Assembly: GCF_041886205.1 (NCBI RefSeq)
Contig: NZ_CP169029.1
Reading direction: 5' to 3' (one strand)
From: Escherichia coli
Lineage (GTDB): Bacteria > Pseudomonadota > Gammaproteobacteria > Enterobacterales > Enterobacteriaceae
Length of the DNA: 64,000 nt
The notes under the pieces were generated by a model that worked only from the letters and a program-made list of their open reading frames with translations, had not been told where the DNA came from and ran no database searches. The position numbers and the translations under genes are program-made. Of the stretch, positions 42,214-43,716 are shown one piece after another. Position 1 is the stretch's first letter, and each line of letters begins with the position of its first letter.

Positions 42214-42516
42214 TCATTGTGTACCCATTGATGTTCTTTTATATACCCTCAATACCCGTTTCATCGCGGCACTCTGGCGACACTCCTTAAAAATCAAATT
42301 CGTGCTCACCTTTCCTTCCCATTCTTCTCTGGTAGCGAACCGATAATACACCGTTCGCCAGACCTTACCATCAACGACCAGGATTCCTGCCCGCGCCATT
42401 TTAGCCGCAGCCTGATTTATGCTGGTTACCGTTGCGCCTGTTACCGCGGCAACGTCCTGCGCACAGAATTTCTTATGAGTCCCCAGGTAATGAATAATTG
42501 CCTCTTTGCCCGTCAT
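42214..42516 (-). CDS. ren: Ren-like protein (lambda ren homologue)
   Basis: 100 aa MTGKEAIIHYLGTH...; matches lambda Ren as remembered. Confidence 0.75.
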   Translation of the reverse strand: MTGKEAIIHYLGTHKKFCAQDVAAVTGATVTSINQAAAKMARAGILVVDGKVWRTVYYRFATREEWEGKVSTNLIFKECRQSAAMKRVLRVYKRTSMGTQ

Positions 42517-42901
42517 ACCCTTGCTCCTTTCAGCCCAAACTTAGCTTTGATTTCTGCGATCTTCGCCAGAGCCTGTGCACGATTTAGAGGTCTACCGCCC
42601 ATGACAGGAAGTTGTTTTACTGGTTCAGGTATAGCCTCACCACGGTTAATTCGCGCGGTCATACAGGCCAGTTCATCGGCAGCCTTGCGCCGTAATTCCG
42701 CGTCAGTCAACGCATTGGCCCGCATGTTCTGGTAGCCAGGCTCGCCGGGAAAGTTGCCAGTAACTGGCTGAACACACCATTGATGATCTGCGCTACCAGC
42801 TGTACCTGCGGCTTTTCGTCGTACTGTTCCGGCATGTTATTGGCGATCCGACGCATCTGCTCACGGTCAAAGTTAACCATCTGTGCGGCGATGTTTTTCA
42901 T
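42513..42901 (-). pseudogene. P: replication protein P with an internal out-of-frame deletion
   Basis: N-terminal ~55 aa (42707..42901) and C-terminal ~70 aa (42513..42725) of lambda P in different frames; middle missing. Confidence 0.7.
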
Positions 42902-43425
42902 AAATCCACCCCATAAATCCAGTCAGTGTTTGTCAGGTCGAGTTTTGATTTTCCGGCTGTCACGCCAGCCTGTTGCTTGTTACGGTTGATTTCGAGTTGG
43001 GTCCACTTGTCGCGGAGTTTGGCCGGACATAGCACGTTACCGGACCAGAAGTTGTCCTGGCATGCCCAGCGGAACAGCACGCACATGTCGCGGTGGTTAC
43101 GTCCGTCACGTTCACGCATCAGGCGGATATCGTTAGCCCACCCTGCAAAATTCGGTTTTCTGGCTGATGGCGCGATGGTCTTCACCATGTCAAACATCCA
43201 CTCTGCGGCGGTCAGGTCTTCTGCTGTCCCCCACTTGCTGCCGCTCTGAATTGCAGCATCCGGTTTCACCACAGGAAGATCGTTTTCTGGCTGGTCAGAG
43301 GATTCGTCAGAATTCTCGGACGAAAAAGGTTTTATATTGTCTTTTGTTAGTTTGTCTTTTGTGTTTACCTGATTCGGGTAAACGCCTTTAATCGAACAAG
43401 ACCCGTTAGTAACTATCGACATCAT
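42898..43425 (-). pseudogene. O: replication initiator O, C-terminal fragment with the ori AT-rich segment; N-terminal domain and iterons absent
   Basis: acidic linker (SSENSDESSDQPEN) and C-terminal domain ending ..TDWIYGVDL; upstream sequence is unrelated. Confidence 0.65.
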
Positions 43426-43716
43426 TACGCATCGCTATTACGGGGTTGGAGGTCAATGGGTTCAGGATGCAGGTGAGTATCTGCATATGATGTCTGACGC
43501 TGGCATTCGCATCAAAGGAGAGTGAGATCGGTTTTGTAAAAGATAACGCTTGTGAAAATGCTGAATTTCGCGTCGTCTTCACAGCGATGCCAGAGTCTGT
43601 AGTGTCAGATGATGACCGTACTCAAACATCGGGTTGAGTATTATCTTACTGTTTCTTTACATAAACATTGCTGATACCGTTTAGCTGAAACGACATACAT
43701 TGCAAGGAGTTTATAA

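Follow-up and report, generated by a model that had tools for sequence, protein, structure and literature searches.

Positions 42214–43716 at att-lambda of Escherichia coli: very probably the deletion scars of a cryptic, grounded lambdoid prophage

Fragments of the lambdoid replication genes O and P, lying between an intact ren gene and a set of intact integration genes, raise the question of whether positions 42214–43716 of the DNA analysed here (the window, 64 kb of Escherichia coli chromosome oriented from bio towards gal) belong to a phage which can still be induced and replicate, or to one that has lost both abilities. The region is part of a cryptic lambdoid prophage of 19,956 bp (window 25693–45648), located at att-lambda between ybhB and ybhC, the flanking genes being bioA-ybhB at the bio end and ybhC at the gal end. 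The 15-bp att core is present at both ends, lambda-type Int and Xis adjoin att, and homology to the lambda attP arm spans 25689–25960 at the bio end. Taken with the junctions described below, the region is very probably a set of deletion scars in a “grounded” prophage. The decay seen here is real and ordinary, and the relic is of an already known kind.

An inducible, replication-competent lambdoid phage carries a repressor, cro and N, a full-length O with its iteron array, an intact P and head and tail genes, and the element does not possess this set. The head genes and the tail genes Z to L are absent, with no Nu1–L genes detected by blastn against lambda, and late-gene homology to lambda is confined to pieces of K'-I-J-lom-stf-tfa, Rz and att. 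Interspersed with the tail-gene fragments are a trkG segment like that of Rac and a gene for a diguanylate cyclase. Rfam and tRNA scans of the window returned no family or tRNA in the region. A phage satellite (PICI or P4-like) was also considered, defined by its own primase or replicase together with regulatory and capsid-redirecting genes, as opposed to helper-derived pseudogenes. This identity was rejected, as all pieces in 42214–45560 are collinear with genes or gene fragments of lambda or of phage 4A7.

Leftward from the integrase, the gene order is int-xis-orf55-ea8.5, followed by a stub of ea22, the O remnant (O'), the P remnant (P') and intact ren (Table 1). Aligned by blastn to lambda (NC_001416), window 43388–45648 is 99.2% identical to lambda 29984–27724, and within it 43388–43716 matches lambda 29984–29656 at 329 of 329 positions, comprising the last 45 codons of ea22 and the spacer. 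These 329 bp of pure lambda ea22 and spacer DNA are all that separates O' from ea8.5. On the other side of the junction the lambda identity falls to 94.9% (window 42733–43364 against lambda 39750–39119, the P N-terminus and the C-terminal half of O) and to 90.7% (42241–42734 against 40555–40062, ren and the P C-terminus). Phage 4A7 is the closer relative there, at 98.5% over 42733–43390 and 97.1% over 41403–42734, while the O fragment is 99% identical to phages 4A7, Lambda_4C10, 1W, 3W, Perceval and PhiR47_2. The lambda affiliation implied in the preliminary description, which was made from the sequence alone, thus holds for the int side, at 99–100%, while O'-P'-ren-emrE is of the DLP12/4A7 type.

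Table 1. Features of the scarred region and of the prophage ends, in window coordinates.
Feature	Position	Strand	Description
ren-like gene, intact	42214–42516	-	100 aa; 96% to 4A7 Ren over 100/100 aa, 88% to lambda Ren
P (helicase loader) pseudogene	42513–42901	-	389 bp instead of 702 bp
Internal P deletion junction	42727–42734	-	...CTGGCTA/CCAGAACATG...; net loss 313 bp, frameshift; from alignment to intact P of strain 573 and 4A7
O' remnant	42898–43390	-	Last 164 codons and stop of the 339-codon DLP12/4A7-type O; 98.5% to 4A7 (L005 9658–9001)
175-aa ORF	42898–43425	-	ATG at 43425; 12–13 antisense-ea22 codons fused in frame to O'
AT-rich ori segment	43310–43364	-	70% A+T; aligns to lambda from 39119 onward
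Surviving iteron	43365–43381	-	TTACCCGAATCAGGTAA; palindromic; fifth of five in the intact relative
Large deletion junction	43388–43390		3-nt microhomology TTA, common to the end of O iteron 4 and ea22 (lambda 29982–29984)
ea22 3' stub	43388–43525	+	Last 45 codons and stop; 100% identical to lambda Ea22 residues 138–182
ea22-ea8.5 spacer	43526–43716		Collinear with lambda 29846–29656
ea8.5, intact, lambda-type	43717–43998	+	Protein 100% identical to lambda
orf55, intact, lambda-type	44087–44254	+	Protein 98.2% identical to lambda
xis, intact, lambda-type	44294–44512	+	97.2% over 72/72 aa, 2 substitutions
int, intact, lambda-type	44490–45560	+	98.9% over 356/356 aa, 4 substitutions
att core, ybhB/bio end	25693–25707		Exact match to the lambda 15-bp core
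att core, ybhC/gal end	45634–45648		TTAGTATAAAAAAGC; exact match to the lambda core

As described previously, O has been reduced to its C-terminal half and is missing the N-terminal domain. The remnant corresponds to residues 175–339 of 4A7 O at 98.8% (tblastn), from which it differs by one substitution (S to C), and it covers positions 146–317 of 318 in PHROG 277, the C-terminal part only. Its broken end at the junction reads GGGTAAACGCCTTTA and lies 26 nt upstream of the AT-rich segment, rather than inside that segment as first proposed. In 4A7, the O gene contains five palindromic iterons of the form TTACC-N7-GGTAA (L005 8915, 8944, 8963, 8987 and 9010), followed by the AT-rich segment, and the homology of the window stops at L005 9001, leaving the last 3 nt of iteron 4. 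The origin parts retained are therefore these 3 nt, a complete iteron 5 and the AT-rich segment, which harbors two 15-nt direct repeats at 43332–43361 and whose lambda counterpart adjoins lambda iteron 4 on its right; of the five iterons, four have been lost. The view that no iterons remain needs amending to this extent, but there is no array, since an exact match to TTACCN7GGTAA occurs only at 43365–43381 and no array exists in 43426–43716 or in the rest of the 64 kb. The former interval, in which a search for iteron-like repeats had been suggested, is the ordinary 3' end of lambda ea22 with its spacer, and no notable repeats were found. In lambda, the N-terminal domain of O binds the iterons, origin function needs the array, and the C-terminal domain contacts P. 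The loss of the N-terminal domain and of four iterons would be expected to abolish origin function here.

The extent of what is missing follows from the same alignments, which map the deletion endpoints to ea22 and to the middle of O, as the preliminary description had proposed could be done against lambda. A deletion from beyond ea8.5 to mid-O had been described, and it is real, although its left endpoint falls within ea22, where the 45-codon stub is kept. In lambda coordinates the gap reaches from 29985 to ~39100, roughly 9 kb, the true size depending on the parent phage. Using 25 lambda and 17 4A7 proteins from the int-to-ren interval (to ybcK for 4A7) as tblastn queries, matches were obtained only for int, xis, orf55, ea8.5, the ea22 C-terminus, the O C-terminus, the two ends of P, ren, emrE and the ybcK N-terminus. 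In the whole 64 kb, these lambda and 4A7 queries picked up nothing for cI, cro, cII, N, cIII, kil, gam, bet, exo, rex, sieB, ral or ea10, bearing out the reported lack of cI, cro and N. The repressor search covered the lambda and 4A7 types, and every other sizeable ORF of the prophage is accounted for. In strain wlxctx60, whose prophage is near-identical, RefSeq likewise annotates no immunity or recombination early genes. As for recombination genes, said to be wholly missing, the Red genes are absent but the nin region retains rusA (38730–39092) and a disrupted ybcN. Two things that would speak against the loss of these functions, an array of iterons and an intact repressor with cro, were looked for and neither was found.

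The second lesion lies in P, which, in agreement with the earlier account, is present in two frames with the middle missing. Codons 1–56 occupy one frame, after which eight codons are read out of frame up to a stop, while codons ~161–233 lie in another, and the fragment matches only the two ends of the P family profile. The two blast pieces of P overlap by 2 nt at the internal junction, which fits either a 306-bp deletion between CAGAA repeats accompanied by a 7-bp loss, or one complex event. Among complete E. coli genomes this junction occurs only in wlxctx60, while ~3,100 others have the P sequence from either side of it with the missing 313 bp in between. Intact P of 702 bp (233 codons in 4A7) is present in strain 573, NCTC11121 and 4A7. 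Since relatives with the same or a near-identical O truncation retain intact P, the P lesion postdates the large deletion. The adjoining ren gene remains whole, and its product matches PHROG 142, the Ren-like exclusion protein. Decay extends further into the right arm, where ybcK has been cut to ~52 codons with ~3.1 kb lost relative to 4A7, and ybcN is interrupted by an IS3-family/IS629-like element.

The following history would account for these observations. Because the int side is of the lambda type and the right side is 97–98.5% identical to the 4A7 type, the parent is taken to have been a mosaic temperate phage, which would have combined lambda-type int-xis-ea8.5-ea22 and tail genes with a DLP12/4A7-type right arm in the order O-P-ren-emrE-ybcK...rusA-Q-porin-lysis. 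The first event was probably an illegitimate deletion which joined ea22 codon 138 to O codon 175/176 at the 3-nt microhomology in iteron 4 of five. It would have removed the rest of ea22, the Red, gam and kil genes, N, pL, the repressor/cro/cII block and pR, along with the N-terminal, iteron-binding half of O and four iterons. Lambda and 4A7 serve as stand-ins for the parent in estimating the content and size of the lost DNA. A second, later and lineage-specific event would then have cost P a net 313 bp and put it out of frame.

Several consequences can be predicted from sequence. The element would not be inducible, since repressor, pL, pR and N are all missing, and it is expected to be unable to replicate from its own origin without full-length O, the iteron array and P. 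No sigma-70-like promoter was detected on either strand in 42100–44100, and the O' and P' fragments are probably silent. The earlier judgement that there is no repressor to induce and no functional origin is in keeping with the loss of the early genes, of the O N-terminus and of four iterons, with the frameshift in P and with the lack of a promoter. Furthermore, the element would be unable to make particles and is presumably carried passively with the chromosome. Excision in trans is conceivable because Int, Xis and both att cores are intact, but only if Int and Xis are expressed or supplied by another phage.

The distribution of the junctions was assessed in 5,426 complete E. coli genomes. 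Only wlxctx60 is 100% identical over 41500–45700; it carries both junctions base-for-base, and the ea22/O junction is found in no other genome of the set. It does not have the IS of the window in ybcN and thus represents an independent, closely related strain, in which RefSeq labels the remnants “phage replication protein O, incomplete”, a “frameshifted” hypothetical protein and “protein ren”. Strain 573 presents a different picture, as its O is broken at the same nucleotide as in the window but is joined to position 628 of IS2. This strain keeps a 704-bp piece of IS2, the right end of which abuts the equivalent of window 43531, and it differs from the window by ~1.2% in the chromosomal flanks and by ~2.4% across O'-P. 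The same internal IS2 breakpoint (position 628) recurs at an unrelated locus in other strains. An O breakpoint common to the window and strain 573 is not expected from one random deletion; an old junction common to both and since altered, a history driven by IS2 or a hotspot at the palindromic iterons might account for it. The coincidence leaves the verdict of a dead prophage unchanged. Other att-lambda prophages have been cut nearby: in NCTC11121 an IS1A begins at the edge of the AT-rich segment and reaches into orf55, with the iteron removed, and in MMC-J-0105, an analogous but independent loss, ea8.5 is separated by an IS629-like element from a lambda-type O that is truncated at its N-terminus. 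Loss of the immunity and replication block from att-lambda prophages is recurrent and ordinary.

With respect to how the ea22/O junction was made, illegitimate recombination between two phages or prophages, rather than deletion within one, could have produced it. A role for insertion sequences is improbable, though it has more to recommend it than the readings treated after it. According to this explanation IS2 was inserted either between iterons 4 and 5 of O or a short way downstream of ea22, deletions associated with the IS took out the immunity region, and the lineage of the window later lost the IS completely. The identical O' breakpoint at IS2 position 628 in strain 573, with its right end at the equivalent of 43531, agrees with such a course, as do the att-lambda remnants of NCTC11121 and MMC-J-0105, which have an IS at the corresponding place; a breakpoint common to lineages whose flanks are 1.2% apart also argues for a common cause. 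However, the junction in the window contains no IS sequence or IS end, only the 3-nt microhomology, and a full IS2 left end abutting O' was seen in 0 of the 5,426 complete genomes. Nor did viral or metagenome contigs offer any other partner or non-native continuation at the O' end (0 matches in each), and IS2 position 628 does not resemble the ends of IS2 (rank 184 of 1,211, not significant). A further possibility, weaker than the decoy reading considered next, is that the recurrent break at the iteron 4/5 boundary marks a hotspot where lambdoid prophages are inactivated time and again by IS2 or by breakage linked to replication.

Deletion within one prophage, followed by decay, also has to be weighed against the possibility that the fragments were kept for a function. 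The 175-aa ORF might act as an O C-terminal decoy which titrates the P of incoming lambdoid phages, or the iteron and AT-rich DNA might act as a decoy site. Such an anti-phage decoy might sequester the P helicase loader, or O, of superinfecting DLP12/lambda-type phages. The ORF is open, begins with ATG and is one residue off 4A7 O in its O-derived part, PHROG 2357 comprises proteins of ~124 aa matching the C-terminal part of O alone, and this part is, in lambda, the one which touches P. Against this, 42100–44100 is devoid of promoter-like sites and the ATG with the first 12–13 codons comes from ea22 antisense. The upstream context differs in strain 573 (an IS2 fragment) and in NCTC11121 (IS1A, iteron removed), so that nothing upstream of O' is conserved. 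In addition, there is no PADLOC defence match for O', P', ren or ea8.5 and no NCBIfam match, and P has been destroyed in the window lineage only, consistent with neutral decay. A retained function is accordingly very unlikely, and the 175-aa ORF is a chance product of the junction. That the junctions are assembly or sequencing artefacts from collapsed or chimeric contigs has almost nothing to commend it, for although lambdoid modules occur in several copies in E. coli genomes and can mislead assemblers, nothing specific points to such an error here, and both junctions recur base-for-base in the independently assembled wlxctx60, which differs by the IS insertion, and the O' breakpoint occurs in strain 573 as well.

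The value of deletion scars read in this way is mainly one of correct annotation, the 20-kb element at att-lambda being a passenger. As the element would neither be induced nor replicate, its remaining cargo, namely emrE, the porin, trkG, the diguanylate cyclase, rusA and the Q-plus-lysis cassette, would be inherited as chromosomal genes. The mapped junctions also provide a small, clean case of stepwise decay, in which an immunity and origin deletion was followed by the P lesion, the ybcK truncation and an IS insertion. Like DLP12, the element may still serve as a reservoir of sequence for infecting lambdoid phages through recombination; DLP12, Qin and Rac have been shown experimentally to donate DNA to infecting phages in this manner (PMC3945230).

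Among known systems, the right side is nearest to 4A7 (NC_049946, Bievrevirus) and to Lambda_4C10, 1W, 3W, Perceval and PhiR47_2, which are 97–98.5% identical over O'-P'-ren-emrE-ylcJ-ybcK' and share the iteron sequence, the AT-rich segment and the order of the nin, Q, porin and lysis genes. The arrangement in 4A7 is cI-cro-cII-O-P-ren, an emrE/qacE-like gene, ylcJ and ybcK, then ybcN-ninE-ybcO-rusA-ylcG-Q-porin-lysis. Unlike the window element, these phages keep cI, cro, cII and ybcK whole, with an O of 339 codons containing five iterons and a P of 233 codons, and their integrase is of another type, so att-lambda is not used. Lambda supplies the closest match on the int side, where the att core, int, xis, orf55, ea8.5 and the ea22 3' end are collinear and 99.2–100% identical, and the gene order int...O-P-ren is that of the lambda prophage. 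In contrast, O', P' and ren are only 87–95% identical to lambda, the iteron reads ATCCCTCAAAACGAGGGA in lambda and TTACCCGAATCAGGTAA in the window, and emrE-ybcK and other genes take the place of the nin region. Lambda 29985 to ~39100 has no counterpart in the window, where the head and most tail genes are also absent.

Lambda-like elements at ybhC-ybhB have been tabulated for E. coli B and Crooks (PMC3032704, Table 2). The remnant in E. coli B (REL606) resembles the present one in its site, its lambda-type int-xis-orf55 and its missing immunity and replication genes, but differs in that a fragment of a DUF551 gene directly abuts the lysis and terminase genes, and O, P, ren and emrE are all lacking. 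The phage backbone is another one, and the deletion arose independently. A laboratory counterpart is said to exist in the “cryptic lambda prophages”, survivors of induction in which killing, immunity and replication functions are deleted and the ends are kept; these reportedly arose from IS2-carrying lambda.

A close parallel in form is DLP12 of E. coli K-12, the order of which is intD-xisD'-exoD'-peaD'-renD-emrE-ybcK...rusA-quuD-nmpC-essD-rrrD-rzpD. The right arm of the window element, ren-emrE-ylcJ-ybcK'...ybcN-ninE-ybcO-rusA-ylcG-quuD-porin-lysis, is a DLP12-type module, 92–98% identical in DNA to DLP12 and 93–98.5% to 4A7 in the same order, with essD-rrrD-rzpD included. It is not DLP12 in the strict sense, which is inserted at argU with an intD-type integrase, whereas the window element is at att-lambda with lambda Int. 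The DLP12 deletion runs from exo to mid-P (the exoD'-peaD' junction) and leaves no O, while that of the window runs from ea22 to mid-O and is accompanied by a separate lesion in P; the P fragment of DLP12 reaches 90 bp further upstream than the C-terminal piece in the window. Endpoints in P or O common to K-12 DLP12 were tested for and rejected, as the endpoints differ, and the deletions in DLP12 and the window are therefore independent. In both elements, the genes for recombination, immunity and replication initiation have gone in one deletion, and a fragment of P is left beside the int-side genes.

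The O gene is broken at the identical nucleotide in the window and in strain 573 (L003), while the partner to which the remaining 3' part, O', is joined differs between the two. In the window this partner is the 3' stub of ea22, whose place is taken in strain 573 by a 704-bp right-hand fragment of IS2, with O' abutting IS2 position 628. The chromosomal flanks of the two sequences differ by 1.2%, and the common O breakpoint is therefore not a product of recent common descent. The internal IS2 breakpoint was also compared with the ends of IS2, and no resemblance between them was found.

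A breakpoint at IS2 position 626-628 recurs at an unrelated locus in H1827/12 (L008 2495-2515) and about ten other genomes, where the IS2 fragment abuts a truncated "zinc ribbon protein" gene and adjoins a TonB-receptor pseudogene. The flanking sequence there, GCCTTA, is similar to the GCCTTTA of strain 573. The IS2 copies of strain 573 and of this locus are 4% diverged.

Features of the cryptic prophage and of its strain 573 counterpart
Feature	Window	Strain 573 (L003)	Remark
GGDEF protein gene	26348-27679		443-aa membrane protein, GGDEF diguanylate cyclase domain; inside prophage
Rac-like segment	31799-34972
trkG	33497-34972		part of Rac-like segment
IS3-family element	~39899-41207		inside ybcN; IS629-like ends (TGAACCGCCCCGG)
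ALIL frameshift pseudoknot	40233-40349		of the IS3-family element in ybcN
ybcK, serine recombinase gene	41379-41558		shortened to first ~52 codons; junction 41403-41411
O'/IS2 junction	43384-43391 (counterpart)	8195-8215
Other IS2 fragment edge	43531 (counterpart)	8898-8912

Comparison with lambda over window 25689-36000 identified no head genes and none of the tail genes Z to L; the matches consist only of pieces of K, I, J, lom, stf and tfa, a short b-region fragment and Rz. At the position of the lambda b region lies the gene of the GGDEF membrane protein, which is likely prophage cargo. Within the Rac-like segment, a 265-aa ORF has the end of lambda tail gene K as its C-terminus and is a fusion at a further deletion junction, and a 263-aa ORF contains a ParB-like N-terminal domain and matches the beginning of a type II methyltransferase profile. 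The middle ORF of the segment is annotated as split in wlxctx60, a complete E. coli genome with a near-identical prophage.

Decay of the element extends to ybcN and ybcK. The wlxctx60 prophage, otherwise identical to that of the window, is without the IS3-family insertion in ybcN. At ybcK, ca. 3.1 kb are missing relative to the intact phage 4A7, comprising the remainder of this gene and the 4A7 esterase gene, and the two flanks of the deletion junction overlap by 9 nt.

In other att-lambda remnants the immunity region was lost by separate events. An IS629-like element separates ea8.5 from an N-truncated, lambda-type O in MMC-J-0105 (L007 2100-3480), IS1A spans the gap from the AT-rich edge of O' to orf55 in NCTC11121 (L004 8170-8950), and a DUF551 gene is joined to the lysis genes in REL606 (L010 12950-25000).
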